A stretch of 64,000 nt of DNA from a virus. Lineage: Duplodnaviria; Caudoviricetes. Within the stretch, counting starts at the first letter, position 1; the number at the start of each line of letters is the position of its first letter. The position numbers and the translations under genes are program-made. The stretch lies in IMG/VR virus record IMGVR_UViG_3300044846_003573; one strand, 5' to 3'. The notes below the pieces were generated by a model, which saw only the letters and a program-made list of their open reading frames with translations, was not told the origin of the DNA and made no database searches. This document shows, piece after piece, positions 136 through 47,739 of the stretch.

Positions 136-486
136 ATGATGAAATATATCATAGACCAAAAACAATTAGAAAAAACAAAAAATTTAATTCAAGGATTAAT
201 TAATTCTAAATTAGATAGTTTAAGAGAAGAGTCTGAAGAGTGGGGAATGGGTGAGATGGATGAATTACACGAAGTTGAATCTGTTGATAAGATTGAGGTT
301 GTTGATGTTGTAATGTCAGGTAAGATAAAAGTTCTCATTAATATTTACAGAACTCAGTTAAGAGATGATTTTGATAATATCAGGGGGGAAATTCAATATA
401 GGATAGAAGATTTGTTACCCAATATTGAATTATACATAAACGATATTATTGACGAAAGGGAATTTGGACCTAAAATTGATTGGTAA
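136..486 (+). CDS. Hypothetical protein with MKYII-type N-terminal leader
   Basis: 116-aa ORF; N-terminus resembles that of 12425..13045. Confidence 0.7.
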   Translation: MMKYIIDQKQLEKTKNLIQGLINSKLDSLREESEEWGMGEMDELHEVESVDKIEVVDVVMSGKIKVLINIYRTQLRDDFDNIRGEIQYRIEDLLPNIELYINDIIDEREFGPKIDW

Positions 487-512
487 ATGAACCATTAATT
501 GAATTTTTTTAC

Positions 513-520
513 TATATTTG
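513..520 (+). promoter_or_regulatory. Bacteroidota-type -7 promoter element TAnnTTTG
   Basis: TATATTTG 20 nt upstream of ATG 541. Confidence 0.55.
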
Positions 521-540
521 TAATCTAAAATAAAAACAAT

Positions 541-639
541 ATGACATTAAACAATTTACCTGATGAAGACTATTACGACCAAGAAGTTTATGATGATGGA
601 GAATTGTTAGACGAATGTGATGATTATTGTGGAAGTTAA
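541..639 (+). CDS. 32-aa acidic micro-protein (not in ORF track)
   Basis: MTLNNLPDEDYYDQEVYDDGELLDECDDYCGS*, preceded by TATATTTG. Confidence 0.45.
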   Translation: MTLNNLPDEDYYDQEVYDDGELLDECDDYCGS

Positions 640-670
640 CTATATTTATATAGTATAAAAACTTACTATT

Positions 671-826
671 ATGAAATTCAACAACCTTTGGTTAAAATTA
701 CAGGAAATTGACGAAATCAACATTACTGTTAAAGTCTTAGCATTTATAATTCTATCAATTGAATTGGATTGGTCATCAAAAAAAGTTTCTTTCACTGTAT
801 TGAACTTTAATTGGTCAAACAAGTAA
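671..826 (+). CDS. 51-aa small hypothetical protein (not in ORF track)
   Basis: MKFNNLWLKLQEIDEINITVKVLAFIILSIELDWSSKKVSFTVLNFNWSNK*; TATTTAT at 643-649 upstream, hairpin downstream. Confidence 0.5.
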   Translation: MKFNNLWLKLQEIDEINITVKVLAFIILSIELDWSSKKVSFTVLNFNWSNK

Positions 827-830
827 TTTT

Positions 831-860
831 AAACCCCTTATAAAAAGGGGTTTATTTTTT
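831..860 (+). terminator. Intrinsic terminator
   Basis: AAACCCCTT-ATAAA-AAGGGGTTT followed by a T-run. Confidence 0.7.
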
Positions 861-884
861 TAAATTTATTTTTATTTTTATTTT

Positions 885-1073
885 ATGACACAAGAAGAAA
901 AATCACAATTGTATAGTAACTTACTAATGCAACACACCCGTTTGGATAACAAAATTAATGAAATTAAATCTGAGGATTTCGAACTCAACAATGAACAAAT
1001 GGGTAGAATTAGAACACTTCAGATGCAACAGGGACAATTGGTTGCTCAGATGCAACAATTGATGAATGGATAA
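885..1073 (+). CDS. Small Gln-rich coiled-coil hypothetical protein
   Basis: 62-aa ORF with heptad-like pattern. Confidence 0.6.
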   Translation: MTQEEKSQLYSNLLMQHTRLDNKINEIKSEDFELNNEQMGRIRTLQMQQGQLVAQMQQLMNG

Positions 1074-1557
1074 ACCATTCAGGTGTATCTCTATTTTTCC
1101 ATTTAGCAAAATCTTTTTTAGCTCCGTTATAGTAGTTTCTATATGATTCTATAACGTCTTTTACTTTATACTCATCGGGCATTGCTTTTGGAGGTTCTGT
1201 AAAACCTTTATCACAAATGTTTAACTTATTTGTGATACACCACTCAATAACATCTTGAGATTTATGACGTTTTCCGTATCTATAAGTGTATTCTTTACAT
1301 AATTCAACTCCTAAGTCACAAAGATAAAGATAGTTTGATAATGACTCTCTGACCCATATTGAACAGGGGTGGTTTTTATGTGATAACTTATACGGTACTT
1401 GGTCGGTACTTGGTCGGTACTTGGTGGGTACTTGGTGGGTTACATGGTGGGCTCCACATAATAGTTGTGCAGTCTCAAGTATCATCTTAACCACGTGTTT
1501 ATCACAATGGTATTCTGCACATTTTTTTGTATCCCAATCCAAAAAGAAGATATTCAT
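1009..1557 (-). CDS. Pyrimidine-dimer DNA glycosylase (DenV/endonuclease V-like family)
   Basis: MNIFFLD...HCDKHVVKMILETAQLLC...HKNHPCSIW...YTYRYGKRH family motifs; start placed at ATG 1557. Confidence 0.8.
   Translation of the reverse strand: MNIFFLDWDTKKCAEYHCDKHVVKMILETAQLLCGAHHVTHQVPTKYRPSTDQVPYKLSHKNHPCSIWVRESLSNYLYLCDLGVELCKEYTYRYGKRHKSQDVIEWCITNKLNICDKGFTEPPKAMPDEYKVKDVIESYRNYYNGAKKDFAKWKNRDTPEWFIHSSIVASEQPIVPVASEVF
1394..1437. repeat. 4 x 11-bp tandem repeat inside the DenV-like gene
   Basis: GGTACTTGGTC x2 then GGTACTTGGTG x2. Confidence 0.95.
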
Positions 1558-1621
1558 AATGCTAATGTAAACAAAAAATCCCACAAGACGTGGGACATTT
1601 TGAAAAATAAATGAAATTGTA

Positions 1622-2047: not shown

Positions 2048-2131
2048 ATACAATTATATTATTTTTTTTTGATATAAAAAAGTGTAAAAGTTAATTTTCT
2101 TTGTATTTATATAGATAAAAAAGAATTTTTT

Positions 2132-2704
2132 ATGAAAAAAGAAAAAGTTATTAGATTAACAGAAAATGAACTTATTAATTTAATTAAAAAAGTTATAAAA
2201 GAAAACGATGATTTAACTGCAAAAACACCTGACCAATTTCGTAAGGAAGTATCAGGTCTTACAGGTTCTGAAGTTCTTATGTTTAATGCTTATGGTTTAA
2301 ACAAATACACAGGTGAAAGCGGAATTTTTAAGGGTAAAAGAACTTCTGAAAACTATAAAATAAAAGAAGTTGGAATAACAACAATTAATAATTTACCAAC
2401 AGTTGAATTTACAGTTCAAGATATTTCGACAGGTGCGGGAGTTGATGGTTATACAGGTACTTTTTTGAATGTAAAAAGACGTAGTGAACCTATTAAATTC
2501 AGATGGAATTGTAACTCAGCATTTGAAAAAGGATTAGGGGAAATTAATCAACCTTTCCAAAGAAAAGGTGGTATTAAAGAAGATTATCTAAATAACGATT
2601 TAGCAAAAGTAATTACATCAAGACCGTTTTGTACTTATAAAGGAACTCCTGATTATGTAGTACCAATTAAACCGAACACATCATATAGAGGTGCTCCAAG
2701 ATAA
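2132..2704 (+). CDS. Putative virion-internal protein with KVIRLTENEL leader
   Basis: MKKEKVIRLTENELINLIKKVIKE; TATTTAT at 2104. Confidence 0.7.
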   Translation: MKKEKVIRLTENELINLIKKVIKENDDLTAKTPDQFRKEVSGLTGSEVLMFNAYGLNKYTGESGIFKGKRTSENYKIKEVGITTINNLPTVEFTVQDISTGAGVDGYTGTFLNVKRRSEPIKFRWNCNSAFEKGLGEINQPFQRKGGIKEDYLNNDLAKVITSRPFCTYKGTPDYVVPIKPNTSYRGAPR

Positions 2705-2729
2705 AATAAAAAAATAAAAAAATAAAAAA

Positions 2730-3146
2730 ATGAAAAAAGTAGTAAGATTATCAGAATCAGAATTAACTAGATTAATTAAAACAGTAGTTAACGAAACAAA
2801 AAGAAATAAAAGAAACAGAGTTAATGAAGATGTTGAAAACTTCTTTAATCCCGAAGCAATGAGTACTGGTGGGGCAATTGCGACAATGGTTGGAACAACT
2901 ATTGCTCTTTTAGGTATTGCAGGATGGGATTATCTTAAGGAACTTTACGGTCAATTAAGAAATACTGAAGGTAAAGAAGAAGAAGCAATGGAACTTAAGT
3001 CTATTATCCGAGATTACGAAAGTAATAAAATGAATTCAGGTGAAGAAATGGATTCTGATGTTGATAGTATGGATATGGATATGGAAGACGAGGAACCAAG
3101 AGACCCAATGGCTGAGAGTATCAGAAGACACATTAGAAGACGTTAA
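2730..3146 (+). CDS. Leader-bearing protein with one hydrophobic helix and an acidic tail
   Basis: MKKVVRLSESELTRLIKTVVNE; GGAIATMVGTTIALLGIAGW hydrophobic segment. Confidence 0.7.
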   Translation: MKKVVRLSESELTRLIKTVVNETKRNKRNRVNEDVENFFNPEAMSTGGAIATMVGTTIALLGIAGWDYLKELYGQLRNTEGKEEEAMELKSIIRDYESNKMNSGEEMDSDVDSMDMDMEDEEPRDPMAESIRRHIRRR

Positions 3147-3164
3147 TTTTTAAAAAAAAATAAT

Positions 3165-3191
3165 AAAAAACTCCCAATCGGGAGTTTTTTT
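3165..3191 (+). terminator. Intrinsic terminator (bidirectional shape)
   Basis: AAAAAACTCCC-AATC-GGGAGTTTTTTT. Confidence 0.8.
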
Positions 3192-3194
3192 GCT

Positions 3195-3202: not shown

Positions 3203-3227
3203 TAAAACAATTAACACCAACACTACT

Positions 3228-3392: not shown

Positions 3393-3394
3393 AA

Positions 3395-3466: not shown

Positions 3467-5233
3467 ATGAGGAATTTATTAACTGAAGTTAGTAAGATAA
3501 AAAATAATATGGGTTTGACAGAATCTGAAAAACCAAAGTATAGCCCTGAGGTTAAATCTCTTGTTGCGGTTTTAAAAGACAACAAAGTTTATAGTGCTCA
3601 AATCCAAAAATTTATTAATAAAATTGACGGTTTTTCAAAAGAAGGTTTAGTTGATTTTGGATTACTTACAAGAGGTATATTAAAAACTTTGAAATTAAAA
3701 GGTAATAAGGATATTAATGTTTTTGAATTTTTTAAACAACTAACTAAGTCATTAGAAAAAAGAAAAACTAAAAAAGAAGTTGTTAGTCCTGAAGAGGAAC
3801 CATCAATTTTAAATAAAGACATTTACAAGAAAGAAATATTTTTCTTACAGGTTGAACTTTTAAAATTACAAGAATGGTTAAAACAAACAGGTAAAACTGT
3901 TATTATTGTTTTTGAGGGAAGAGACTCGGCGGGTAAAGGTTCAACAATTAAGAAGTTTACTGAAAACTTAAATCCAAGATATTATAAAGTAATTGCTCTC
4001 GGTATTCCAACACCTGACGAAAGAAAGAACTGGTGGGATAGATACAGTAATCAAATTGAAAGAGGTAAGATAAACTTCTTTGATAGAAGTTGGTATAATA
4101 GAGGTTTAGTGGAACCTGTAATGGGTTACGGTTCTTCAGAAGAGTATGAAGACTTTATGGATAATGTTCAGGACTTTGAGGAGTCATTAGTTGTTGACGG
4201 TGATTATCTATTTAAACTTTGGTTCTCAATAGATAAAGAAACTCAAGCCAAGAGATTTGATTTTAGACAAAAGTCCCCATTAAAATATTGGAAGTATTCT
4301 GAGAATGATGAGAAGATGCAAGATGTGTGGGAGAAGTTTACAGAGTATAAACAAAAACTTTTTGATAAGACATCAACAGTTAACCATCCTTGGGTTGTTT
4401 TGGATTCAAATGATAAGAAAATTTCAGGTTTAAATTCAATTAGATATGTTTTACAAAATATTCCTTATACAAATAAAGATGAGGACGTTTTGAATAAAGA
4501 TTTTCCTGAAGCTATGACTGTTTTAAAACCAAATATTAATGAACAGACATCGACTATGGATTTCTATAATAAATATTTTGGTTCTGATGATAAAAAAGAA
4601 GAACCGAATTTTATGGATAAATGGTCTTCTATGGGACAACCAAAAGACCAAATGAAACCAGATTCGGGAGGTGTTGTTAGTGATATAAATAAAACAATTA
4701 AATCTGGACTTGAGACTGCTAAAAAATCTTTAGATAAAAAGTCATCAAATTCAAGCGATAGTTACGCAACAAGATGTTCAACAAGGGCTATTGACTACAT
4801 TAAAAAACAAGAAGGATTTCGTTCTGAACCGTATAAAGACACAAACGGTATTTTGACTATCGGGTATGGTCAAATAAAAATTAATGGTAGACCTGTAAGA
4901 CCTGGCGACACAATAACTGAACCGGAAGCCTCAAAAAAAGTTAATAACTATGTTAAAAATATAGTAGAACCTGAAATTTTATCTTATGGTGGTGGGCATA
5001 ATAAATTGACACAACATCAATTTGATGCCTTGTGTTCATTAAAATATAATTTTGGTGGTTACGCAAAATCAGATTTAAAGAAAGCAATACAAATTAACCC
5101 CAACCCAAACAGAAATCCGGAAATAGAAAAACACTTTACAACTGGATGGAAAGATGGTGAATTAATAAAGAGAAGAAAACATGAGTATAGTTTATATTCA
5201 AAGGGTGATTATACTACATATAACCAAGCATAG
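3467..5233 (+). CDS. ppk2: Polyphosphate kinase 2 fused to a C-terminal GH24 (phage) lysozyme
   Basis: PPK2: FEGRDSAGKG, FFDRSWYNR, KLWFSIDKETQAKRF. Lysozyme: IKKQEGFRSEPYKDTNGILTIGYG with E-X8-D-X5-T intact. Confidence 0.9.
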   Translation: MRNLLTEVSKIKNNMGLTESEKPKYSPEVKSLVAVLKDNKVYSAQIQKFINKIDGFSKEGLVDFGLLTRGILKTLKLKGNKDINVFEFFKQLTKSLEKRKTKKEVVSPEEEPSILNKDIYKKEIFFLQVELLKLQEWLKQTGKTVIIVFEGRDSAGKGSTIKKFTENLNPRYYKVIALGIPTPDERKNWWDRYSNQIERGKINFFDRSWYNRGLVEPVMGYGSSEEYEDFMDNVQDFEESLVVDGDYLFKLWFSIDKETQAKRFDFRQKSPLKYWKYSENDEKMQDVWEKFTEYKQKLFDKTSTVNHPWVVLDSNDKKISGLNSIRYVLQNIPYTNKDEDVLNKDFPEAMTVLKPNINEQTSTMDFYNKYFGSDDKKEEPNFMDKWSSMGQPKDQMKPDSGGVVSDINKTIKSGLETAKKSLDKKSSNSSDSYATRCSTRAIDYIKKQEGFRSEPYKDTNGILTIGYGQIKINGRPVRPGDTITEPEASKKVNNYVKNIVEPEILSYGGGHNKLTQHQFDALCSLKYNFGGYAKSDLKKAIQINPNPNRNPEIEKHFTTGWKDGELIKRRKHEYSLYSKGDYTTYNQA

Positions 5234-5248: not shown

Positions 5249-5566
5249 ATGAAAAAGTTTATTATTACAGAAAACCAATTAGAATTTATAGTTAAAAGAT
5301 ACCTTAACGAAGACGCAAGATACGTAATGTCTTTTGATGAGTTCATGAGACATAAGAACAAAGACCAACAATATAAGTGTGGTTTTGAAAATTTATGTTT
5401 TTTGATTCATGATGGAAATCACCAAATAGATTTGGATGAAAAATTCCATGAAAAACACAAAATTCCTAATGGAATTGGTGGAACAATTTACCACGATGGT
5501 AATAATACTTATTTCTGTCCTGACTTTGGTGACGACAGACCACAAAGAACTATTCAGGTTTATTAA
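5249..5566 (+). CDS. Leader-bearing hypothetical protein
   Basis: MKKFIITENQLEFIVKRYLNE; TATTTAT at 5237-5243. Confidence 0.7.
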   Translation: MKKFIITENQLEFIVKRYLNEDARYVMSFDEFMRHKNKDQQYKCGFENLCFLIHDGNHQIDLDEKFHEKHKIPNGIGGTIYHDGNNTYFCPDFGDDRPQRTIQVY

Positions 5567-9252: not shown

Positions 9253-10653
9253 ATGACAAAAATAGTTAAACTAACTGAAAATGATTTAGTTGATATTATA
9301 AAAAAAGTTATTAGTGAACAAACACCTGATAGAAAAAGATTTATAACTAAATCACAGACTAAACTCACCCAAGGTGAGCGCACCCAGGGTCAGAGTAGTT
9401 ATTCAAAACAATATGAAGCATTTAAATCTGAAGGTCAGGCGACTGAAGATAATACAAAGTTCAATGATTTGAGGATTAAGGTTAACTCATTAGTAAATTT
9501 TCAGGAAAGAGATAATGGATATGTAAAAAACATTCTTGTTGGCCAATCACAGATTGATTTATGGGAAAAAATAAAAATAGATGACATGTATTATGCTGCG
9601 GATATTATTAACGCAGTTATATCTAAATCAGGGAGTGATGCATACAAATACTGTAGATTGGGGACAAATAAAACGGCATTTGAACTTACAGACCCATCTA
9701 TGACAACACCACCTGAAGATGATGAAACACCTGGGGAAGTGGATGTTGTTACAATTCCATCGGAAATTGTCCAGCAAGATTTCTTTGATAATAATAGCTC
9801 GGCATTAAAACAACCTGGAATAGATGAATTTATGGCAACTTTTATTGAACCATACAAAACAGCTTTAGCTAAAATTAGACAAACTTATCCTAATGCGGGA
9901 ATATGTATACAACGTATGTATATAGAGTCAAGTGCTAGTAGATTTAGAAATCAAGGGGGAGCAAAAGATATGAGTTTTCTTCAATTATCCGAGGCAAGGG
10001 CTAAGACTGTTGAATATTTGTTAATGAATGCCTACGGAAAATTAGGTGGTAATTGGTGTACAGGTACACGTACTACAACAATAAATGCTAAAGGACAAAA
10101 TGGTGATGGTACATCTGGACCAAATCCACCTGTTGGATATACTTTTTTACCTAAAGGTGTTGATTATAATTTTGATAATTTTGTAGATACACGTAATATG
10201 GCCCCAAAAGATAAGGCAACATACGAAGGTAAAAGAAATCAATTTGGAACTCCTGAACCTGCCGATAAAGGTGGTGCTAAGGCTTATGAAAAATATAGAT
10301 ATGTAAGACCAACAGTTGATGTTGAACTTTATTACGGTGACGAAAAACCTAATGTACCAGATACTTTGGAGGGTGAAAAAATCGCCCCTGACAAAATAGA
10401 AAGTAAAGGTCAAAAATATTGGGCGGTTTTATATAGATGGAAATTTTCAATTATTACAGGACGTAGAAAATTTGATAGAAAAAAGAAAAAAAATCATAAA
10501 AATAAAGAATATCAAAGAGTAAATAAACATCATTCTGTTCAAGAAGACCCTAGTAAAAAATGTCTTAAAAAATCTGCAGACAAAATAAAAAGAGAAATGA
10601 AGAAAGATAAAAGACGTGGAAGAAATTACTCGGATAGATATTTTTCTAAATAA
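9253..10653 (+). CDS. Leader-bearing protein with OmpA C-like motif and basic tail
   Basis: MTKIVKLTENDLVDIIKKVISE; FFDNNSSALK and LQLSEARAKTV resemble OmpA-like F..DS..L and LS..RA..V. Confidence 0.6.
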   Translation: MTKIVKLTENDLVDIIKKVISEQTPDRKRFITKSQTKLTQGERTQGQSSYSKQYEAFKSEGQATEDNTKFNDLRIKVNSLVNFQERDNGYVKNILVGQSQIDLWEKIKIDDMYYAADIINAVISKSGSDAYKYCRLGTNKTAFELTDPSMTTPPEDDETPGEVDVVTIPSEIVQQDFFDNNSSALKQPGIDEFMATFIEPYKTALAKIRQTYPNAGICIQRMYIESSASRFRNQGGAKDMSFLQLSEARAKTVEYLLMNAYGKLGGNWCTGTRTTTINAKGQNGDGTSGPNPPVGYTFLPKGVDYNFDNFVDTRNMAPKDKATYEGKRNQFGTPEPADKGGAKAYEKYRYVRPTVDVELYYGDEKPNVPDTLEGEKIAPDKIESKGQKYWAVLYRWKFSIITGRRKFDRKKKKNHKNKEYQRVNKHHSVQEDPSKKCLKKSADKIKREMKKDKRRGRNYSDRYFSK

Positions 10654-11364: not shown

Positions 11365-11568
11365 ATGACAAAAATGAAACGAATTCTAAAGGAAAATGTT
11401 GCCACCTATTGCCTTATGCTCGCAATGTTTTTCAACCCACTAGGATTCGACATAATGTTCAAAGCAATTTTAGACTACACAAGTTCTTATTGGATTACCA
11501 CAGGAATTTTTTACTGTATTTCAGCATTGTTATTTGGGTTGTATTTCTTATTACGAAGTAAAAAATGA
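11365..11568 (+). CDS. Small two-TM membrane protein
   Basis: YCLMLAMFFNPLGFD and YWITTGIFYCISALLFGLYFLL. Confidence 0.7.
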   Translation: MTKMKRILKENVATYCLMLAMFFNPLGFDIMFKAILDYTSSYWITTGIFYCISALLFGLYFLLRSKK

Positions 11569-12164
11569 ATATCAAAAAACTTATCAAAAAAGTTCTTACA
11601 GAATCAGTGGAGAAACCACTTATTTCAGAACATCTTAATTATCATGTGACAAATGATATACCACTAAACGATAACATCTTCAGATTTGGTTCAGAAGAGT
11701 TCTTTAATGTTATTAATGAAGGTCGTGAGTTATATTTTGAAGGAATGGTAGAATTAAGTGAAGACGATGTTGAACTTGTTGAATCTGACTTTGGAAAACA
11801 AGTAACTTTATCAAGTGGTAGAGTTGTTTTCTTGGATACTCCGATGGAAGAATCATTTATTTCTGAAGCTGAACATAATGGAAAGAAAGTTGAACTTGGT
11901 AAACCAAGAAGAAATAGTGGTGGTGGAAAGAAATATGTTGTTTATGTAAAGAACCCGTCAACAGGTAGAGTTAAGAAGATTTCATTTGGTGATGTTCATG
12001 GTGGTTTAACTGCTAAGGTATCTAACCCTAAAGCTCGTAAATCATTTGCCGCAAGACATCAGTGTTCTAAGAAAAAAGATAGATTAACTGCCGGATATTG
12101 GGCATGTCGTTTAAACCGTTTTGGTTATTTGTGGGGTGGTAAAACTTATACAGGATTTTGGTAA
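11565..12164 (+). CDS. Leader-bearing protein with conserved basic C-terminal domain seen in T4-like phages
   Basis: MNIKKLIKKVLTES...ISEA|EHNGKKVELGKP...ARKSFAARHQC...AGYWAC. Confidence 0.7.
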   Translation: MNIKKLIKKVLTESVEKPLISEHLNYHVTNDIPLNDNIFRFGSEEFFNVINEGRELYFEGMVELSEDDVELVESDFGKQVTLSSGRVVFLDTPMEESFISEAEHNGKKVELGKPRRNSGGGKKYVVYVKNPSTGRVKKISFGDVHGGLTAKVSNPKARKSFAARHQCSKKKDRLTAGYWACRLNRFGYLWGGKTYTGFW

Positions 12165-12165
12165 T

Positions 12166-12432
12166 ATGAAACCGTATAAAGATAGAAAATTAACAGAAAC
12201 TTCAAAAATTAGAGTTTTTAAATCCGATGTTGATAGTGGTGAACTACAATGGCATCGTGATAGAGAAGATAGATTGATTGAAGTTGTTCAGGGTAATGGA
12301 TGGAAATTTCAAATGGATAATCAACTACCTATAGAGTTAACTGAAGGACAAGTATTATTAATTCCTGAAGGAACTTATCACAGAATATTCAGAGGAACGT
12401 CTGATTTGGAATTAAAGATTGATTTTATTTAG
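12166..12432 (+). CDS. Cupin-domain protein
   Basis: ELQWHRDREDR...WKFQMDN...IPEGTYHRI; ATG 12166 follows the stop at 12164. Confidence 0.7.
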   Translation: MKPYKDRKLTETSKIRVFKSDVDSGELQWHRDREDRLIEVVQGNGWKFQMDNQLPIELTEGQVLLIPEGTYHRIFRGTSDLELKIDFI

Positions 12433-13045
12433 TAATCCTATCAACGATTAAATCCATAAGTCGTTTTAAGAAATTACCTGAAATTGTTATTAATCCAAAT
12501 GCTGATAATGATTTAACTAACATTTCAGTATCTTTCATATCCCATATACCCTCAGAAACTGCATCATATATCATTGGTATGATTGGAACCAAGAATGCGT
12601 AACTTAACATATTTGTCACACTGAATGCTGATAAATTCAAACTCTTTAAAAAACCTGCTAAAACAGTTTTAAGTTGATTGGCTTTAATTGCTCCCAATTT
12701 AAATGGACCTTCAAGTCCGTCTTCTTTAATTTTTTCAATAATTGATTTGGTAAAATTTCTTTCTTGAAAGAATATTACTGACGCAATACCGGCTGCAATC
12801 AATGATGAATCTTTTTCTGTTAACTCAGGTACTTGTCCATTTAACCATTGCATGATTGGACCCATAAACCCTCCGATTGCCGCACCCCATGTGAGCATCA
12901 TCTTTAAGTTTATTGAAACATGAGTTTTCGTGTCTTCAACAATCTTTTTAGTTAGTTCAACACCATCTTCTTGAACTTCTTTAATCCTATCATTTATTGC
13001 TTCAAGGATAATTTGCTTTTGAGATTCTTTAATTATATATTTCAT
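12425..13045 (-). CDS. Leader-bearing multi-TM membrane protein
   Basis: MKYIIKESQKQIILE; several hydrophobic segments. Confidence 0.65.
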   Translation of the reverse strand: MKYIIKESQKQIILEAINDRIKEVQEDGVELTKKIVEDTKTHVSINLKMMLTWGAAIGGFMGPIMQWLNGQVPELTEKDSSLIAAGIASVIFFQERNFTKSIIEKIKEDGLEGPFKLGAIKANQLKTVLAGFLKSLNLSAFSVTNMLSYAFLVPIIPMIYDAVSEGIWDMKDTEMLVKSLSAFGLITISGNFLKRLMDLIVDRITK

Positions 13046-14466: not shown

Positions 14467-14928
14467 ATGAGAAACGCATTTTTTTTGAATATTACTAAAG
14501 AAGAAAAAGAATCAATACAAGATAAACACAAAAGTCAATATGATGGATATGTTACTCGTGGATTTAACACACCAAAAGAACAGATACTTAATGTAGAAAA
14601 TTTGGCGTTAGATGAAAAAGGAATTACAGTATCTAATATGGGTGAAGTTAAAGAATATACGAACAAAGAAGTTAATAGAAAACTTAAAAAAGTTTGTGAA
14701 CAATGTAATGGTTTATATGAAGGTGAAATGTGTGAACAGTGTTCATCTATGAAAGAGGGAGAACAATGTGAACAATGTGGTGAAATGAAAGAAGGTGAAA
14801 CATGTGAGTGTGGAACTAAAGGATATTCTATGGAAGAAATTGAGGAAAGTATCAAACTAAAATCAAAAGCTCCGTTAGTTAAAGAAGATATCAGTGAATC
14901 ATTAAATTGGTTTAAGAGACTTTTGTAA
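14467..14928 (+). CDS. Late protein with repeated CEQC motifs
   Basis: CEQC x3 plus CEC, spaced by xEG; TATTTAT at 14443. Confidence 0.65.
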   Translation: MRNAFFLNITKEEKESIQDKHKSQYDGYVTRGFNTPKEQILNVENLALDEKGITVSNMGEVKEYTNKEVNRKLKKVCEQCNGLYEGEMCEQCSSMKEGEQCEQCGEMKEGETCECGTKGYSMEEIEESIKLKSKAPLVKEDISESLNWFKRLL

Positions 14929-27820: not shown

Positions 27821-27849
27821 AAAAAAAAGGGGGTTTATTCCCCCTTTTT
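27821..27849. terminator. Bidirectional terminator
   Basis: A-run GGGGG-TTTATT-CCCCC T-run. Confidence 0.75.
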
Positions 27850-35159: not shown

Positions 35160-35166
35160 TATTTAT
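35160..35166 (+). promoter_or_regulatory. Late motif TATTTAT before terminase
   Basis: 5 nt before ATG 35172. Confidence 0.6.
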
Positions 35167-35171
35167 AGTAT

Positions 35172-37095: not shown

Positions 37096-37153
37096 CCTAT
37101 GTATCATATTTTGATTAAACTTTAATTTAATTTAAAAGTATTTATATTTTAGT

Positions 37154-39025: not shown

Positions 39026-39736
39026 ATGAGATTCGGAATAATTAAAACACTAGTAGAAAATAAGTTGGTAGAGTCATTCAAAAATGATGCTCTTAAAACT
39101 GATATGTATCTTTTTAACAAAAAATTATTGAAAAATAAAGATTTTGTTAAAATGATGTCAATTTATGACAACCTAAATGAAAACAAAGGTTTAGATAAAG
39201 AAACTTCCAATTACTTGGTTGAGGATATGGTTTCAGAATTTAAAAATCTAAATCTTTCAGAATCAACAAATAAATTTATTAAAAGTTGGACAAAAGATAT
39301 TGTTTTAGAAAACAAATACGAAACTATTGATGATTTATTGTATGGTGATTTGATAAAACCTGAAAAAAAATCAATTGCCAAAAAGAAAATTGTTGAAAGT
39401 TTAACTAAAACTAAACCAATTGTTGAAAATAAAACACCCAAAGTTCCAATTAGTTCAATGTTAAAAGTTGCTAATAAAACTGCTGAAAAATATTTAGAAA
39501 ATTTAACTGAATCGGAAAGAAATTCAATTAAAGAAATTTTAACTTCAAAAGAAGAAAATTTAAAAAGTAAATTTGACGAATTAAAAGAAAATGCGGTTCA
39601 AAAAATTGACATATTAATTTCAGAATCTGATGAAGAACTTAAAAATGTTTTAGTTGAAACAAAAGAAAGAGTTACAAACTCTAAACCATCTAAAAAAGAA
39701 TATATTAAGTTATTGAGCTTAACTCAAAATTTATAA
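39026..39736 (+). CDS. Hypothetical head-module protein
   Basis: Between portal and protease; TATTTAT at 39002. Confidence 0.7.
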   Translation: MRFGIIKTLVENKLVESFKNDALKTDMYLFNKKLLKNKDFVKMMSIYDNLNENKGLDKETSNYLVEDMVSEFKNLNLSESTNKFIKSWTKDIVLENKYETIDDLLYGDLIKPEKKSIAKKKIVESLTKTKPIVENKTPKVPISSMLKVANKTAEKYLENLTESERNSIKEILTSKEENLKSKFDELKENAVQKIDILISESDEELKNVLVETKERVTNSKPSKKEYIKLLSLTQNL

Positions 39737-40451: not shown

Positions 40452-40474
40452 TATTTATCTAATAAAAAGGTAAA

Positions 40475-41194
40475 ATGCAAAATTATAAAATATTAGGTCC
40501 AAGAGAGACAGGAAAGGGTATTTTAATTGAGATGGATGCGGGATATGTTTCCCCAACAGAAAAACATAATCAAACATTCTTACAAGAAAGTAGGGATTTT
40601 AAAGATTATTCAAAACCATTTGAATTTTATGCCGTTCTACAAAAATATAATACACCAAATAGAAATGGTAGAATATATCCCGAAAGAATTCTAAAGAGAG
40701 AATCGGATAACTATATTAAAAATTATATAGGTAAGAAAACATCCTTATCTGAACTTAACCACCCTGAGTCTTCATTGATAGATTTAGATAGAGTATCACA
40801 CATGATTACAGAGATGTGGTGGGATGGTAATGTTCTATTAGGTAAACTATTACTTCTGACTTCACCAGGGTTTCATGAAAGAGGTATTGTATCAACAAAG
40901 GGTGACCAAGCTGCAAACCTATTAAGATTAGGTGTAACGTTAGGTATATCATCAAGAGGGGTAGGTTCATTAAAAAAGGTAGGTGACCAAAATGAAGTTC
41001 AAGATGATTTTGAATTAATTTGTTTTGACTTGGTATCTTCACCATCAACACCTGGAGCTTATTTATTTACTGAACCTGATGGAAGATTTGCGTTTGAAGA
41101 GAACCTACAAGAAGAAAATGAAATGAAAGCCGCAAGAACAGTTAACAAATCGCTTGATTTAATGGGAAGACTTTCCGATTATTTAAAAAAATAA
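40475..41194 (+). CDS. Prohead protease (T4 gp21-like)
   Basis: NRNGRIYP, SELNHPE, GISSRGVGS, DLVSSPSTPGA. Confidence 0.93.
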   Translation: MQNYKILGPRETGKGILIEMDAGYVSPTEKHNQTFLQESRDFKDYSKPFEFYAVLQKYNTPNRNGRIYPERILKRESDNYIKNYIGKKTSLSELNHPESSLIDLDRVSHMITEMWWDGNVLLGKLLLLTSPGFHERGIVSTKGDQAANLLRLGVTLGISSRGVGSLKKVGDQNEVQDDFELICFDLVSSPSTPGAYLFTEPDGRFAFEENLQEENEMKAARTVNKSLDLMGRLSDYLKK

Positions 41195-41532: not shown

Positions 41533-42885
41533 ATGGCAGAAAAAAACTTAGTTGAAGAAGCATTAATCCAAATACAAAATTTGGAAGAAGCAATCAATGA
41601 AAACGCAAAAGAAATACTTCATTCTACAATGAAAGAAGAAATTAGCGAATTAGTAAAAGAGTCTATGAAAAATGAGGCTGAAGAAGAAGATGAATTTGAA
41701 GTTGAAGACGAATTAGAATTTGAAGATGGTTCTGAGGAAGAAGAAGACGAATTAGAATTTGATGATGAGTCTGATGAAGATGAGTCTGATGAGGAAGATT
41801 TCGAATTTGGAACTGAGGATGACGAAGATTCTGAAGAAGAATTTGACATGCCAGATTTATCTGATATGGGTGGTAACGATGAATTTAATTCTACTGAAGT
41901 AACTGATTTAACTGACAGTTCAATGGAAGATGTTCTTAAAGCGTTCAAACAAATGAGCTCTGATGACAGTTTTGAAATTAAAAAAGAAGGTGATTTTATT
42001 CATTTAAGAGATGAGGAAGATGAATACCTTATTCAAACTGAATCTGAAGAAGAAGAGTATGAAGGTTTTGAATATGAAGAAATGGAAGAAGAATTAGATG
42101 AAATTGTTTATGAAATTGAAATGAGTGAAGAAGCTGAAGAGGAAGAAGAATATGAACTTGAAGAAGACATATTTACTGAATCTACTAAAGCAGTGGTTGG
42201 TAAAGGTGTTAAGTTAGGAAACGCTAAAACAGCATCTACTTACAAAAAAACACAAGGTGGTTTCAACGAAAAGAAAGCTCACGCAAATCCTACAAAAGGA
42301 ACAGGTAAACCTAAATTTGAGTTCAAAGAAGAAGCTTCAATGGACACAGACAAGAGACCTATAAGATTCGGAACAAAAGAGGAAGCTAAAGAAGCTGCTC
42401 GTACTTACGGATTTGGTTCTAAAAAAGGACGTGGTTTAAGAAAGGGTATTACACCTAACAGAAACTTAACGTTTGAAAGTCGTGAAATTATGGAAGAAGT
42501 TGAAATGTTAAGGTCTAAAAATGAAGAATACAGAAAAGCTCTAAATATGTTTAGAGACAAACTTAACGAAGTTGCTGTGTTTAATTCAAATTTGGCATAC
42601 GCTACAAGATTGTTCACAGAACACTCTACGTCAAAGCAAGAAAAAATTAACATTTTAAGAAGATTTGACACCGCAGACACTCTTAAAGAATCTAAAGCTC
42701 TTTATAAGACAATAAAAGACGAGTTAGGTGGTGCAACCACTAAAGCTCCGATGACAGAATCAATCGAAAGAGTGATGGAGAAAGTTCCACAATCAGGTTC
42801 AGCTGTGAATTTGATTGAATCAAAAACTTACGAAAATCCTCAATTCTTGAGAATGAAAGACATTATGTCAAAAATAATAAAATAA
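41533..42885 (+). CDS. Prohead scaffold/core protein (gp22-like)
   Basis: Very acidic, coiled-coil C-terminus (LNEVAVFNSNLAY); between protease and MCP; TATTTAT at 41507. Confidence 0.8.
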   Translation: MAEKNLVEEALIQIQNLEEAINENAKEILHSTMKEEISELVKESMKNEAEEEDEFEVEDELEFEDGSEEEEDELEFDDESDEDESDEEDFEFGTEDDEDSEEEFDMPDLSDMGGNDEFNSTEVTDLTDSSMEDVLKAFKQMSSDDSFEIKKEGDFIHLRDEEDEYLIQTESEEEEYEGFEYEEMEEELDEIVYEIEMSEEAEEEEEYELEEDIFTESTKAVVGKGVKLGNAKTASTYKKTQGGFNEKKAHANPTKGTGKPKFEFKEEASMDTDKRPIRFGTKEEAKEAARTYGFGSKKGRGLRKGITPNRNLTFESREIMEEVEMLRSKNEEYRKALNMFRDKLNEVAVFNSNLAYATRLFTEHSTSKQEKINILRRFDTADTLKESKALYKTIKDELGGATTKAPMTESIERVMEKVPQSGSAVNLIESKTYENPQFLRMKDIMSKIIK

Positions 42886-42916: not shown

Positions 42917-44767
42917 ATGGGAGCATTATTAGAAAGTGGATTAGTAGGTAACATCGGTCTTAAGCACTTGAAAGTTATCAAAGAAGACACTATAAACAAA
43001 TGGGACAAATTAGGGTTCCTTGAAGGTCTTAGAGGCCACCTAAAAGAAAACGTTGCTCAGTTGTATGAAAACCAAGCATCATTCTTAATTAACGAAGCGG
43101 CTTCAACTGCTGATTCAGGTTCATTCGAAACTGTGGTATTCCCTATCATCAGACGTGTGTTCTCTAAATTATTAGCTAACGAAATCGTATCTGTACAAGC
43201 TATGAACTTACCAATCGGTAAATTGTTCTACTTTGTACCTCAAATTCAAGGTTATTCTGCAGCAACTCCAACACAAGGAGCTTCAGGAGAAGCTGGACAC
43301 AGAGCACCTGTAGGTTCTCCTGGAAACTATCCTGGTGACCCAAATGCTGGTTACACTGATTCAACTGCGTATCCAAAGAACCTTTATGATTTATTCTATG
43401 AAGGAAATGAACCAGGTTTAAACCCATCAGGTCTTTTTGATTATTCAAAAGGTGGTTGGTATTGGGTTACTGGTGCAACTAACCAAGTAGTTTGGTCAAA
43501 CGGTTCATTAGTAGTATCTGGATATGGTTCAGGTGAATACAGAAAATTACTTTTAGTAATGTCTGGTTTCACATCAGTAGGTGACGGTAAGTTAATTGGC
43601 CCTGATGGACAAGAAATGGATACTGAAACATTCCTTTCTGATTTAACTTTATTACCAACTTCCGCATTAGCAGCAAGAATTAACGCATCTGGTGGTAATG
43701 TTACTACTTCTACACCACTTTTATTCCGTGTTGTTACACAAAAATACGGTAAAGGTATTGTTGAATATGGTACTAACAAAACTACAACATGGCCAGGTGG
43801 AGCGACTCCTGGAAATGGAGGTTCGTTCTATGATGTATGTAGTGCTGATGGTGTTATCTACTTAGAAGTTGATTTACAAACACCAGCATGTATCTCTTGT
43901 GGAGCATCTACTCCTGATGGTTACACTGGAACTACTTTCACAACTACTTTAACGGGTGTTACAACTAACACTGCAGTTACTGCATATTGGAAGCGTTACC
44001 AAGAGTTAGAATTTGAAGACAAAATTGGTGAAGTTTCTTTCGACCTTCAATCAGTAACAGTTTCTGTAACTGAAAGAAAGTTAAGAGCACAATGGTCTCC
44101 AGAACTTGCTCAAGACGTTGCAGCGTTCCACAACATCGATGCTGAAGCTGAATTAACAGCTTTATTATCTGAGCAAGTGGCAGCTGAAATTGACCGTGAA
44201 ATTTTACGTGACTTACGTAAAGGTGCAGCTTGGACATTACGTTGGGATTACAACGGATGGAAGCGTCTGAACAACCAATCAACTCCTTACACTCAAAAGG
44301 ACTGGAATCAAACGTTGATTACTGCAATCAACCAAATTTCAGCTCAAATCCATAAGTCTACTTTAAGAGGTGGAGCTAACTGGATTGTTGTATCTTCTGA
44401 AATCAGTGCTATCTTTGATGACTTGGAATACTTCCACGTATCAAACGCGGCTCCTGAGCAGGACCAATTCAACATGGGTATCGAGAGAGTTGGTACATTA
44501 AGTGGTCGTTACCAAGTATACCGTGACCCATACTTCCCACCAAACACTGTGTTGATTGGTCACAAAGGTACTTCGTTATTGGATACTGGATATATCTACG
44601 CTCCATACGTACCATTACAATTAACTCCAACAATGTATAACCCATTCAACTTTACTCCTATCAAGGGTATTATGACACGTTACGCTAAGAAGATGGTTAA
44701 TAACCGTTTCTATGGACGTATCATCGTTGATGGTGTTCGTACATTCGATTTGAATGAATTAAGATAA
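42917..44767 (+). CDS. Major capsid protein (T4 gp23-like)
   Basis: FPIIRRVF...VSVQAMNLP.G.LFY, RKLRAQWSPELAQD..AFH.IDAEAEL, YAPYVPL, GIMTRYA. Confidence 0.96.
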   Translation: MGALLESGLVGNIGLKHLKVIKEDTINKWDKLGFLEGLRGHLKENVAQLYENQASFLINEAASTADSGSFETVVFPIIRRVFSKLLANEIVSVQAMNLPIGKLFYFVPQIQGYSAATPTQGASGEAGHRAPVGSPGNYPGDPNAGYTDSTAYPKNLYDLFYEGNEPGLNPSGLFDYSKGGWYWVTGATNQVVWSNGSLVVSGYGSGEYRKLLLVMSGFTSVGDGKLIGPDGQEMDTETFLSDLTLLPTSALAARINASGGNVTTSTPLLFRVVTQKYGKGIVEYGTNKTTTWPGGATPGNGGSFYDVCSADGVIYLEVDLQTPACISCGASTPDGYTGTTFTTTLTGVTTNTAVTAYWKRYQELEFEDKIGEVSFDLQSVTVSVTERKLRAQWSPELAQDVAAFHNIDAEAELTALLSEQVAAEIDREILRDLRKGAAWTLRWDYNGWKRLNNQSTPYTQKDWNQTLITAINQISAQIHKSTLRGGANWIVVSSEISAIFDDLEYFHVSNAAPEQDQFNMGIERVGTLSGRYQVYRDPYFPPNTVLIGHKGTSLLDTGYIYAPYVPLQLTPTMYNPFNFTPIKGIMTRYAKKMVNNRFYGRIIVDGVRTFDLNELR

Positions 44768-44784
44768 TCTATCTTAATGTAGAT

Positions 44785-44815
44785 AAAAAAAGGTCAGAGA
44801 AATCTGACCTTTTTT
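44785..44815. terminator. Bidirectional terminator after MCP
   Basis: AAAAAAAGGTCAGA-GAAA-TCTGACCTTTTTT. Confidence 0.85.
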
Positions 44816-45068
44816 ATTTTTTAATAATTCTCAAGGATTTTGATATTACTTCAGATTCCAATAAAGTAAATGCACCACGTTTATATGCCGCAACAATTGC
44901 TTGTATAAGACATTGATTGGATTCAATTTCATTTAAATTATTTATAAAGTTATTTAAATCTTTTTCAGAATTAAATTGTATTGTGTCAAAAATACTTTCT
45001 GGTGAAGATAAAGAATTAAACTTATCTATTATTTCTTGATTTAAATTATCTTCTTCTAAATGTTCCAT
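44814..45068 (-). CDS. Hypothetical protein
   Basis: 84-aa ORF. Confidence 0.6.
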   Translation of the reverse strand: MEHLEEDNLNQEIIDKFNSLSSPESIFDTIQFNSEKDLNNFINNLNEIESNQCLIQAIVAAYKRGAFTLLESEVISKSLRIIKK

Positions 45069-45109
45069 AGTATGTTATATTTATATAAAGATAGTAAAAA
45101 AAAATCCAT

Positions 45110-46060
45110 ATGAAAAGTAACGTTATATTAGAAATATTAAAAAAATTCAAAGAGTATAACGAATATATTGTTGAATCTACTTCGACAGGTGATGCGGGTA
45201 GTTATAGAGCCCCATTAAGACCTGGATTAAAGTTGTGGGATAAGAATATTTTAGAGCCCTTTACTGAACAATTAAATGGTTATGATAATGCTGAAGTATA
45301 TGTTGATTCACTTGATGGTAATATTGATACTAAGGGTATTAAAAGAAAAGAAGAAATGTCGGTCGCAATTTCAAAGTCAGACAAAAAACATCCTATTCAG
45401 AATGATGAAGATGGTAGTAATTTGAATGATAACCCTGTTAACACAAAACTACTTAAAAAAGTTTTTGATAATAAAAAAATAAAAGAGGGTACTAATAGTT
45501 CTGTAAGTGCTGGTGAGTATTCAGGTCCTATTGAAATAGGTTTAAAAAAATGGAGAAAACAAGAATTAGGACCATTTACTGATGACAGTAACCATCAAAC
45601 AACAAATAAAGCTAAGAAAAAAAATCTTAAAAATAATATTAAAAAAACTGTCGGTATTTGGGAAAAACATAAAGATAGTGGTTATGAGATTCCAACACAC
45701 GATGTTCATACTATAAAAGAAGATTTAGGAGTTTGGTTTGGTACAAAGAAAAAACCAAAAGGTAGTAAACAACCTAAGGGGCCTTGGGTTAATATCTGTA
45801 GTAAAAAAGATGGAAAACATCCACCATGTGGTAGACCTGAGGGTGATACAAAGGGTTATCCTAAATGTAGAGCGGTAGGAGTTGCTGCTAAAATGTCTGA
45901 TTCACAAAAACAATCGGCTTGTCAACAAAAAAGAAAGGCTGAAAAAAAAGATACTCAAACAGGTAAGGGTCAAAAACCTGTTATGACATCATACAAACCT
46001 AAAAAGAAAAAGACCAACGAATCGGTCTTAATATCTTTAATCAGGAAAGCTTTAGATTAA
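45110..46060 (+). CDS. Modular late protein with repeated E-[ST]T-S-x-AG-Y-P motifs and a basic Cys-containing C-terminal domain
   Basis: IVE-STSTGDAGSYRAP, IKE-GTNSSVSAGEYSGP, IKE-DLGVWF...CGR...PKC. Confidence 0.65.
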   Translation: MKSNVILEILKKFKEYNEYIVESTSTGDAGSYRAPLRPGLKLWDKNILEPFTEQLNGYDNAEVYVDSLDGNIDTKGIKRKEEMSVAISKSDKKHPIQNDEDGSNLNDNPVNTKLLKKVFDNKKIKEGTNSSVSAGEYSGPIEIGLKKWRKQELGPFTDDSNHQTTNKAKKKNLKNNIKKTVGIWEKHKDSGYEIPTHDVHTIKEDLGVWFGTKKKPKGSKQPKGPWVNICSKKDGKHPPCGRPEGDTKGYPKCRAVGVAAKMSDSQKQSACQQKRKAEKKDTQTGKGQKPVMTSYKPKKKKTNESVLISLIRKALD

Positions 46061-46302
46061 TAAATACTTTTGCTAACTCTAATACCTGGTTTAGGTGGCT
46101 CATAAGTTCTTTCAGGTCTTGAGTATTGTCCTGTATTATATTCAGAATTTAATTCTCTTAATGCATTTTTATATTCACCTGTTTCATCAGATAATATTCT
46201 ATCAATAACATCTTGAACTAAACCTCTATCAAGTCTTCCGTATTCTGGTTCTTCTGACATTTCTTTTAATACTTTTTTAATTTGGATATCTAACTTTGAC
46301 AT
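46057..46302 (-). CDS. Small leader-bearing protein
   Basis: MSKLDIQIKKVLKEM. Confidence 0.6.
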   Translation of the reverse strand: MSKLDIQIKKVLKEMSEEPEYGRLDRGLVQDVIDRILSDETGEYKNALRELNSEYNTGQYSRPERTYEPPKPGIRVSKSIY

Positions 46303-46312
46303 GATTCTAATA

Positions 46313-46717
46313 TTAACAATTTATTTTATTATAAATATTATCAAGTGAATGATTAATTTGACTTTCCAATTCTTTTTCAATCTCCATTGCTCTATATTCC
46401 ATTTCTCTACGGAATGAGATAACCAATTTTTCCCATTGAATCTTACTTAATTTAATAAAATAACTGTATGTATGATTGGTTATTGTAACTTGTCCACCAT
46501 CCATTGTAACAAAAATACCTAATTTATCATTACGGATATATTTTTTATCGGATATTGGAGCGATTATAAGTTCAGAATCTTCCGAATGAATGAGTTTACG
46601 GCATATGGTGGAACATTTCCTCACGTTAGACATATAGATGTCAAATTCGGTATCCTTTCGGTCTAATTTACGTAAATACAGACGATACTTAATCCACAGT
46701 TTTTTTATTATAGTCAT
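46313..46717 (-). CDS. Hypothetical protein with host-type promoter
   Basis: TTTG-19 nt-TATATTTG at 46737-46767 on the - strand. Confidence 0.65.
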   Translation of the reverse strand: MTIIKKLWIKYRLYLRKLDRKDTEFDIYMSNVRKCSTICRKLIHSEDSELIIAPISDKKYIRNDKLGIFVTMDGGQVTITNHTYSYFIKLSKIQWEKLVISFRREMEYRAMEIEKELESQINHSLDNIYNKINC

Positions 46718-46775
46718 TTCATTTATGATTTGACTACAAATATACTATGATTTTTTAATAATTCAAAATTTTTAA

Positions 46776-47219
46776 TTAACAATACGCACCTGAACAATGT
46801 TTTTTTCCGTCAAGACCTTTGATTTTGCCCTTACATACTTGAACAGCATGGCCATTCGCATAAGCACTTGGGTACACGTCATATTTTGATTTTGCAGACG
46901 CAACACCACGAGCACATAATTTAGTACCAGCTTTTTTACGACCTTCATACATTACATCAACTGCGTCCTCACTACTAAAATCATCACCTTCAATTTCATT
47001 CATGATAAAATCAAATACTTGGTCCATATTATTTTTAGCTTCAGCGATATGGTCTTGAGCCCAATCGTGTCCATTATCTAAAATAGATTCAATCATTTGT
47101 TTATCTTTACCAAGTAGTATTTCACATTGGCGTTTCATTTGTTCTAAGTTAGAGAAAAACATATATCTTTGATTTTCCTCTTTAAGAACTTTTTTAATTA
47201 TGTTATTTAAATTTTTCAT
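46776..47219 (-). CDS. Leader-bearing protein with C-terminal KLC.RG...K..VYPSAYAN domain
   Basis: MKNLNNIIKKVLKEE; start at ATG 47219. Confidence 0.7.
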   Translation of the reverse strand: MKNLNNIIKKVLKEENQRYMFFSNLEQMKRQCEILLGKDKQMIESILDNGHDWAQDHIAEAKNNMDQVFDFIMNEIEGDDFSSEDAVDVMYEGRKKAGTKLCARGVASAKSKYDVYPSAYANGHAVQVCKGKIKGLDGKKHCSGAYC

Positions 47220-47220
47220 A

Positions 47221-47739
47221 TTACGCAATCATATCATCTTCTTTTAGGTCATTACAGACTACATCTAAAAACACTTCAATATCGTGTTCTAAACCTTCAT
47301 AATCTTCAAATACGTTAGTTCCTTCAGTTGTATTTTCAAACATACAAGTTTGAAAATTACCCTCAGTATCACAATAAATTTCACCATAGTAATCACTATC
47401 ATCAACTGTTAGATATCCTGTATGTATTTTTTCATCTTCAGTATCTTCAGTTGACTCATATCTAAATTTAAATGACGGCATACCTGGGAATTCAAAAGAC
47501 CAAAAACCACCAGCTTTAGTCATAAAATCTTCTTTAGATGACGGTTCATCTTCTATTGAAATACCTTTAGTAAATTTTTCAAGAGTTTCTCTTTCTTCAG
47601 GTGTGATTGATTCCATTCCTGATTGACTAATTTTATCTAAAATCATGTCAATTTTATCTTCACCTGGTGACAAAGCTTCAGATAATACAAATTTTAATAA
47701 TTTAATATATTCGTTTTCTTTTAATACTACTTTTTTCAT
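47221..47739 (-). CDS. Leader-bearing acidic protein
   Basis: MKKVVLKENEYIKLLKFVLSEA; IDMILDKISQSGMESITPEE. Confidence 0.7.
   Translation of the reverse strand: MKKVVLKENEYIKLLKFVLSEALSPGEDKIDMILDKISQSGMESITPEERETLEKFTKGISIEDEPSSKEDFMTKAGGFWSFEFPGMPSFKFRYESTEDTEDEKIHTGYLTVDDSDYYGEIYCDTEGNFQTCMFENTTEGTNVFEDYEGLEHDIEVFLDVVCNDLKEDDMIA

Follow-up and report, generated by a model that had tools for sequence, protein, structure and literature searches.

We analysed a stretch of 64,000 nucleotides (hereafter the window) from a Caudoviricetes record of IMG/VR (IMGVR_UViG_3300044846_003573), in which several proteins with unrelated bodies begin with one and the same 22-residue leader, a putative tag that would direct them into the phage head. 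The window corresponds to bases 76112-140111, minus strand, of a record of 155,988 bp (CheckV completeness 52%) and has a G+C content of ~30%. Alongside the leader-bearing genes it holds a head module whose gene order matches that of T4, running from TerL through the portal, a 236-aa protein, the protease and the scaffold to the major capsid protein (MCP; Table 1). The closest cultured MCPs share 43% identity (Microcystis phage Mel-JY01) and 42% identity (Flavobacterium phage immuto) with that of the window, and the stretch is present in many lake-water metagenomes with dates from 2019 to 2025. A megablast search of the head region against GenBank phages gave no match, and none of the RNA runs searched for the stretch contains it.

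The prohead protease that the initial annotation had placed at 40475-41194 was borne out by a PF03420 match well above threshold (E=4e-26; 92 bits versus a cut-off of 27) and by 34% identity to T4 gp21 (E=8e-27). Its ELNHP and G[IV]SSRG motifs (ISSRG here) are preserved and align on the catalytic His and Ser of T4 gp21, which we take to be His85 and Ser140. At its N-terminus, ILIE19 aligns on LIE-9 of the T4 enzyme (PMC9026906).

Similarly, the junction FLINE60/A that had been noted in the MCP (the slash marks the predicted cut) was upheld by the PF07068 match and by alignment on the T4 cut site. In a three-way alignment with T4 and immuto, the MCP propeptide retains KW..LLEG and ENQ, followed by hydrophobic-x-E/A, and E60/A61 coincides with the E65/A66 cleavage site of T4 gp23. 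A LINE/[AS] junction was found in 26 of the 27 clade MCPs, with variable sequence right after it, and the most diverged one reads LLTE/A. As judged by this alignment, the propeptide is homologous to that of T4, and it would be cleaved after the Glu. Farther into the MCP, residues ~105-335 (window 43230-43920) make up a Gly/Thr/Ser-rich insertion of ~230 residues relative to T4 gp23, and the Pfam matches are split in two.

Motifs of the same kind recur in the inner head proteins. The candidate core protein at 39026 contains 14 [ILV]xE in its 236 aa, the highest density of any protein in the record (binomial P=1e-4; proteome rate, 1.8 per 100 aa), and proteome-wide the motif is 1.6-fold enriched at residues 6-40 (P=2e-7). 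In the scaffold, the sites AINE, KLNE, TLKE and NLIE are conserved or invariant among the 24 clade orthologues. Residues 1-50 and 310-450 of the scaffold are conserved, its Asp/Glu-rich middle is hypervariable and differs by >100 residues in length between relatives, and the 20 last residues, after NLIE/S, are almost invariant.

Table 1. Positions of the head-module genes, leaders and related N-terminal features in the window.
Feature	Coordinates	Strand	Protein, evidence or remark
TerL	35172		
Portal	37154		PF07230
Candidate prohead core protein (gp67/68 position, portal-protease interval)	39026..39736	+	236 aa; [ILV]xE density
gp21-type prohead serine protease	40475..41194	+	PF03420
Scaffold, gp22 position, acidic	41533..42885	+	450 aa; alignment of 24 clade orthologues
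MCP (616 aa, start 42917), predicted propeptide of 60 aa ending FLINE/A	42917..43096	+	PF07068
Class A tagged gene, 3' end	1..126	+	233 aa; starts 575 nt before the window; N-terminus MKKVIRLTESDLINIVKRVINE, HMM E=2e-17
Class A leader MKKEKVIRLTENELINLIKKVIKE	2132..2203	+	190-aa protein 2132-2704; HMM E=7e-7; TATTTAT 21 nt upstream
Class A leader MKKVVRLSESELTRLIKTVVNE	2730..2795	+	138-aa protein 2730-3146; HMM E=7e-8
Class A leader MTKIVKLTENDLVDIIKKVISE	9253..9318	+	466-aa protein 9253-10653, OmpA-C-like domain in body; HMM E=2e-12
Leader variant MKKFIITENQLEFIVKRYLNE	5249..5311	+	105-aa protein 5249-5566; HMM E=1e-3; syntenic orthologue
Short leader MKNLNNIIKKVLKE	47178..47219	-	147-aa protein 46776-47219; HMM E=5e-3
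Short leader MNIKKLIKKVLTE	11565..11603	+	199-aa protein 11565-12164; HMM not significant; orthologue support
Leader variant MKYIIKESQKQIILE	13001..13045	-	206-aa protein 12425-13045; class A HMM not significant; orthologue support
Possible diverged leader MKKVVLKENEYIKLLKFVLSE	47677..47739	-	172-aa protein 47221-47739; seed of first HMM, second HMM not significant; weak
Possible short leader MSKLDIQIKKVLKE	46261..46302	-	81-aa protein 46057-46302; like 47219 by eye; HMM E ~1; weak
Distinct N-terminal segment MRNLLTEVSKIKNNMGLTE	3467..3523	+	PPK2-lysozyme fusion 3467-5233; Pfam PPK2 and Phage_lysozyme; not the portable tag
NINEQ at the PPK2/lysozyme joint, residues 356-360, candidate internal cleavage site	4532..4546	+	

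A leader shared by unrelated proteins

The leader, or tag, has the N-terminal consensus MKK[IV][IV][RK]LTESDLxxIVKRV[IV]xE (class A). A first hidden Markov model (HMM), seeded with five window leaders, that of 47739 among them, and searched against the 156-kb record in six frames, gave ten matches with E values of 1e-12 to 1.5e-9, every one at the N-terminus of an open reading frame (ORF) and five of them just upstream of the window, while the next match had E ~0.1. To exclude circularity, a second, independent HMM was built from 108 leaders taken exclusively from other IMG/VR contigs. This model recovered eight proteins of the record at E<=7e-7, three in the window (2132, 2730 and 9253) and five upstream of it (-8814, -6725, -6086, -5414 and -575 in the numbering of the window), with 5249 and 47219 borderline. 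Below significance were 11565, 13045, 46302 and 47739, as well as the six genes listed initially as variants (136, 3467, 15568, 17828, 33793 and 45110). The HMM scan of the record and of related genomes that had been suggested as a check thus established that the leader is real and lies far beyond chance. The original count of about 15 leaders in the window, on the other hand, stood only in part: three are strong, two borderline and three to four are plausible short forms, whereas the six variants are different from the class A leader.

Comparison with relatives bears on the weaker forms. The syntenic orthologue of 5249 in a related phage (G002) carries a canonical leader (LTENQLERIVKRLVNE / MKKQITLTENQLERIVKRLVNE), and the short leader of 47219 corresponds to the second half of class A (model positions 12-25). 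The orthologue of 11565 in the distant relative L283 begins with MNLDNLIRRILKE, and that of 13045 in the same relative (37% identity, 201 aa) with MNFNILISESQRKKLIIE; in both pairs a short leader ending in L-K-E or I-I-E is kept, and a form like that of 11565 begins the lysozyme gene of G002.

Conservation of the tag extends to its end and no farther. Upon scanning the IMG/VR viral contigs with a degenerate DNA pattern for LTESDLxxIVKRV, we obtained >118 loci. Among the matches listed, an ATG lies six codons before LTESDL in 106 of 131 and seven codons before it in 16 of 131, and 115 of 117 unique proteins have a Glu at +16, a position outside the search pattern. Other residues outside the pattern are conserved as well, namely the Met, the Lys-Lys, two I/V positions and the R/K. 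Relative to the terminal Glu, P3 is I, L, V or M and P2 is free, and beyond the Glu, where conservation stops, the residues are varied and polar. The ending I-N-E, as in the MCP, was seen in 33 of the 117 tags among the matches listed, and a second L-T-E lies inside the tag. At the invariant residues, two to five synonymous codons are in use, and the leaders of this genome differ by one to eight synonymous codon changes, with one near-identical pair (-6725/-6086, 61 of 66 leader bases identical). This synonymous variety at invariant residues indicates selection on the peptide, not on the DNA or RNA.

The tag is portable. The 110 tagged bodies fell into 74 BLAST clusters, BLASTP at E<0.01 detected no similarity between any two of this genome's ten class A bodies, and for the body of 2730-3146 neither Pfam nor PHROG gave a family. 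When 1.84 billion cluster representatives were searched with a profile of the tag, 7,104 matched at E<=1e-3, and nearly all matches among the best 150 of these begin at residue 1. About 40 of the same best 150 carry two or three tag copies, a share that is not to be read as a frequency because the ranking favours multi-copy proteins. Examples of such proteins have a tag-body-tag-body layout, and some are Cys-rich. Runs of the CxxC type occur in the multi-tag proteins P0038 and P0159 as well as in neighbouring small genes of a 280-kb contig (L287 4830-11008), and these Cys-rich proteins may be disulfide-rich or metal-binding cargo.

Among the leader-bearing contigs of at least 45 kb, 27 of 50 contain the same gp23-type MCP of ~620 aa, as do all six records of at least 90% completeness, which measure 257-321 kb; CheckV scaling of the fragments likewise points to a genome of ~300 kb. 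Five complete genomes carry 7-18 tags each. No match to the leader was found by tblastn against GenBank phages or by the leader HMM on immuto, the nearest cultured phage, and a full-text literature search for the motif turned up no relevant paper. From the contig distribution and the lack of matches in GenBank phages and immuto, we assign the tag to a single, abundant clade of T4-like jumbo phages from lakes. More distant jumbo contigs contain related leader dialects.

Cargo, C-termini and upstream elements

Tagged proteins are small (median 126 aa), with bodies ranging from ~70 to ~600 aa, and searches against Pfam and PHROG assigned no family to the tag or to most bodies. The domains that were recognised are cell-wall-binding: among 108 tagged proteins, LysM occurs in 4 and PG_binding_1 in 3, and a PG_binding_1 domain was also seen in a protein of 593 aa. 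The suggestion that membrane proteins are among the cargo was not supported, as a transmembrane-like segment was present in just 6 of 110 tagged proteins.

The product of 9253 had been described as OmpA-like, and this was weakly supported by fold and motif, while Pfam was silent on the body. Nearly all of its best 50 Foldseek matches in the PDB were of the OmpA/MotB/Pal type (E ~2e-3, Foldseek probability at most 0.98, TM score 0.4-0.5 by target), and the family alignment keeps SSASRFRN...F.QLS..RA. In the AlphaFold2 model, the leader (residues 1-31) is unpacked with pLDDT<50. Close orthologues have the class A tag and distant ones other leaders, such as MKKFIVTEQERHQILNLY...IIE/Q; nearly all leaders shown for the family end in hydrophobic-x-E, usually followed by Q. 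Given these different leaders on orthologues, the 9253 cargo keeps a leader, the type of which varies by phage. After the OmpA-like core, the motif GDGTSGPNPP is invariant in 29 of 29 members of the family, and we found no known counterpart for it.

Several tagged proteins had also been said to end in a Glu followed by a basic helix. This was supported for 14467 only: the C-terminus [IV]xE/SL[ND]WF[KR]R is kept between 14467-14928 and a distant orthologue (L283 9152-9679; 36% identity), and may be a processing or targeting element. Across the clade, basic C-terminal tails were not significantly enriched on tagged proteins (15 of 110 versus 20 of 252, p=0.12; 4 of 10 in this genome). In T4, Alt is cut at both ends.

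Upstream of many of these genes lies the heptamer TATTTAT, found 4-25 nt before 53 of the 171 start codons of the record and often just 4-7 nt from the ATG. On the sense strand, 47 of its 82 copies fall within the intergenic 4% of the record. It precedes every head gene (TerL, portal, core, protease and scaffold among them), the sheath gene and most tagged genes, and in other contigs it lies before 70 of 108 tagged genes versus 30% of control ORFs. No TATTTAT was found at the DNA polymerase, a helicase and ClpC. These placements suggest that tagged genes share regulation with the head genes, and an element 4-7 nt from the ATG would give leaderless or near-leaderless mRNAs. A role as a late-only promoter was considered and is not established, because TATTTAT also precedes the operon of DnaB helicase and ribonucleotide reductase (RNR). 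Examples lie at window 35160-35171, 37139-37153 and 40452-40474, and the element is present too in the distant 280-kb phage contig L287.

Proposed capsid targeting and alternative readings

With moderate confidence, we favour reading the N-terminal helix of 22 residues as a propeptide that is portable and targets its carriers to the capsid, akin to the capsid-targeting sequence (CTS) of T4 and cut by the gp21-type protease. Tagged proteins would be synthesised alongside the head proteins, and the tag would bind a component of the scaffolding core, such that the protein would be enclosed as the gp23-type shell forms. The protease would then cut past the conserved Glu of the terminal [ILV]-x-E, and probably also after the internal L-T-E, whereupon the mature protein would be freed within the head and would exit with the DNA at infection. 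In favour of this reading count the selection on the peptide and its portability, a conservation that ends at hydrophobic-x-Glu, the T4-type protease and the MCP junction of like form, the [ILV]xE density of the core protein and the enrichment of this motif near N-termini, the gp23-type MCP in all six complete records, the similar endings of the different leaders in the 9253 family, TATTTAT ahead of head genes and most tagged genes, and the unpacked leader in the 9253 model.

Several points weigh against this. The main one concerns the recognisable cargo, which is mostly peptidoglycan-binding (an OmpA-like domain in this genome, LysM and PG_binding_1 in related ones): as proteins in a myovirus head are expected to reach the cytoplasm, cell-wall-binding cargo fits poorly. 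The bodies are acidic or basic about equally and not consistently basic like T4 IPII and IPIII. At the predicted cut, P1' is mostly Q, E, N or S, as opposed to the A of the MCP site, and a short amphipathic helix can contain hydrophobic-x-Glu by chance, with ~0.4 sites expected per 22 residues. The tag is without sequence similarity to the T4 CTS. Its upstream TATTTAT is shared with the DnaB-helicase/RNR operon. Lastly, the tag is limited to one clade in which all members have the protease, and hence co-occurrence of the two is not discriminating.

The main rival, clearly less likely though still appreciable, is an uncleaved docking or assembly helix by which many small accessory proteins would gather on a common hub, for instance tail, baseplate, outer capsid face or a complex made by the phage, like the conserved N-terminal anchors of receptor-binding proteins. 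Polar and hydrophobic residues are both invariant in the tag, suggesting one specific partner, and proteins with two or three tag copies as well as peptidoglycan-binding bodies, which would be sensible at the tail tip or in the periplasm, suit such a helix. Against it stand a conservation that ends at a Glu in a protease-type context matching the MCP junction and the differing leader types on orthologous cargo that end alike in hydrophobic-x-E; the tagged proteins are also small and without known fibre or baseplate domains.

Another possibility, which we regard as rather doubtful, is a phage-specific sorting signal that is not a capsid address: cell-wall-binding and Cys-rich cargo, multi-tag polyproteins included, would reach the host envelope via the tail lumen or another route, and the interchangeable hydrophobic-x-Glu dialects would amount to an addressing code across uncultured jumbo phages. 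Less probable still is a sorting or regulatory signal that has nothing to do with the virion, either read by the ClpC-like unfoldase (27835-29898) or routing cell-wall-binding and Cys-rich proteins to the envelope. The window does encode this ClpC-like ATPase, and OmpA-like, LysM, PG_binding_1 and Cys-rich bodies suggest extracytoplasmic action; a link between ClpC and the tag is nevertheless absent from the results, the tag lacks a Sec- or Tat-like hydrophobic core (and transmembrane-like segments are as rare as noted above), and such a signal would explain neither the hydrophobic-x-Glu that closes the tag nor the agreement of this ending with the MCP site.

We give very little credence to the tagged proteins being ancient paralogues that have kept their N-termini best and have C-terminal parts too diverged to be recognised as related: a related N-terminal form, MKYxITESxL, does belong mostly to one tandem-array paralogous family (91 of 126 bodies in one cluster), but class A bodies differ widely in length and contain unrelated domains (OmpA-like, LysM, PG_binding_1), they form 74 clusters among 110, and orthologous cargo bears different leaders. 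An equally slim chance falls to the shared 5' end, from the promoter through the start region to the first codons, being kept as a cassette for expression or recombination with a functionless peptide, for although TATTTAT(T/A)GTAAT-ATG recurs ahead of tagged genes and the -6725/-6086 leaders are nearly identical in DNA, synonymous variation is free at the invariant residues, the upstream motif is missing from many tagged genes, internal tag copies lie far from promoters, and untagged genes equally have TATTTAT.

The capsid-targeting reading draws on the precedent of T4, in which the first 10 residues of IPIII suffice for head incorporation, residues 4 and 7 serving targeting and residues 8 and 10 cleavage, and in which the internal proteins of T-even phages are diverse outside the CTS (PMC9026906, PMC3012670). 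Like the T4 CTS, which gp21 removes from IPI, IPII, IPIII and Alt, the tag is a short N-terminal leader common to unrelated, fast-evolving proteins and ends in hydrophobic-x-Glu, and it occurs together with a gp21-family protease, a scaffold at the gp22 position, a gp23-family MCP with an aligned propeptide site and the T4 order of head genes. Unlike that system, the tag is 22 residues long instead of 10, slightly above the 10-20 residues expected of such a leader. Each genome has 7-18 tagged genes, compared with 3-5, cargo clusters number in the thousands with some proteins carrying 2-3 tags, and the cargo, in which peptidoglycan-binding domains occur, is not basic throughout. The T4 CTS MKTYQEFIAE was found twice in the T4 genome and is unrelated to the tag in sequence; we judge that the likeness is functional and not by descent.

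Among other jumbo phages, phiKZ, 201phi2-1 and SPN3US likewise have a gp21-related protease that cuts after Glu, with propeptides that are longer than in T4, are inferred to direct proteins to the prohead, and come with extra internal cut sites and with conserved N-termini on diverged paralogues (PMC5694885). Their propeptides differ from the tag in being mostly >100 residues long with an A/S/G-x-E motif and in not forming one portable tag, and these phages have no recognised gp22-like scaffold. In phage P1, the Dar system directs anti-defence cargo into a myovirus head through an N-terminal region of DarB and others, with the help of DarA and Hdf; it belongs to another head lineage, needs dedicated adaptor proteins and lacks one short tag conserved throughout. 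Encapsulin cargo-loading peptides are also short, portable and able to load unrelated cargo into an HK97-fold shell, but they are as a rule C-terminal, bind the shell directly, remain uncleaved and serve cellular nanocompartments instead of phages. The likeness of L-[ST]-x-x-[ED]-L-x-x-I to the double-glycine leader of class II bacteriocins (LSxxELxxIxGG) is superficial, and we rejected it, as the tag has no Gly-Gly; neither a C39 peptidase nor an ABC exporter was observed, and the tagged bodies are not small peptides.

Should the tag be a capsid address, sequence alone would reveal which proteins a whole abundant, uncultured clade of lake jumbo phages injects; these would belong to thousands of orphan families and would likely include anti-defence and envelope-acting effectors. 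The T4 CTS principle would then have been scaled up in nature to 7-18 cargo genes in each genome, with multi-tag polyproteins and more than one type of leader, and a second, longer tag would be at hand for engineered protein delivery by phage capsids. If it is not, the tag would be an undescribed and very widely used sorting signal.

Other leader types and neighbouring genes

The fusion of PPK2 and lysozyme at 3467-5233 had been named among the carriers of the portable tag, and in this respect the initial annotation did not hold: its N-terminus is family-specific. A scan of viral contigs for N-termini of this type (MRNLLTEVSKIK..MGL) returned only PPK2, PPK2-lysozyme or lysozyme-only genes of relatives; an N-terminus similar in type is also present on one unrelated protein, in a distant phage of 280 kb. 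PPK2 and the T4-type lysozyme form one fused gene in this genome and two neighbouring genes in G002 (L268 1501-3497), and in other relatives (L053, L272, L276 and L279) PPK2 is missing and the N-terminal segment runs directly into PNINEQ and the lysozyme part. Taken together, these forms show domains being gained and lost in nature at one joint. Comparison with the large tagged proteins of relatives showed that these are not orthologues of 3467, 9253 or 45110.

The ClpC-like AAA+ ATPase of the window (27835-29898, minus strand) is phage-encoded and matches phrog_4871 with 790 bits.

The MKYxITESxL form seen at 136, and partly at 13045, belongs to proteins of ~110 aa and has no terminal Glu. 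In relatives, such proteins (MKY[LI]ITES[QK]L..VIFKYLD) stand in tandem arrays of up to seven per locus, as at L002 12756-15621 (plus strand) and in L196, L164 and L167, and this paralogous family has its first residues in common with the portable tag.

Two more leader types were found in related phages (L287 1974-3194 and 15883-20143), one reading E..[IF][KRH]..[IM][GS]L..[IL]xE/[QG] and the other SE.E[KR].RI..LH... followed by hydrophobic-x-E/Q. No orthologue of 17828 was found in five complete genomes; this gene and 15568 may belong to these two types, both of which end in hydrophobic-x-Glu, as class A does.

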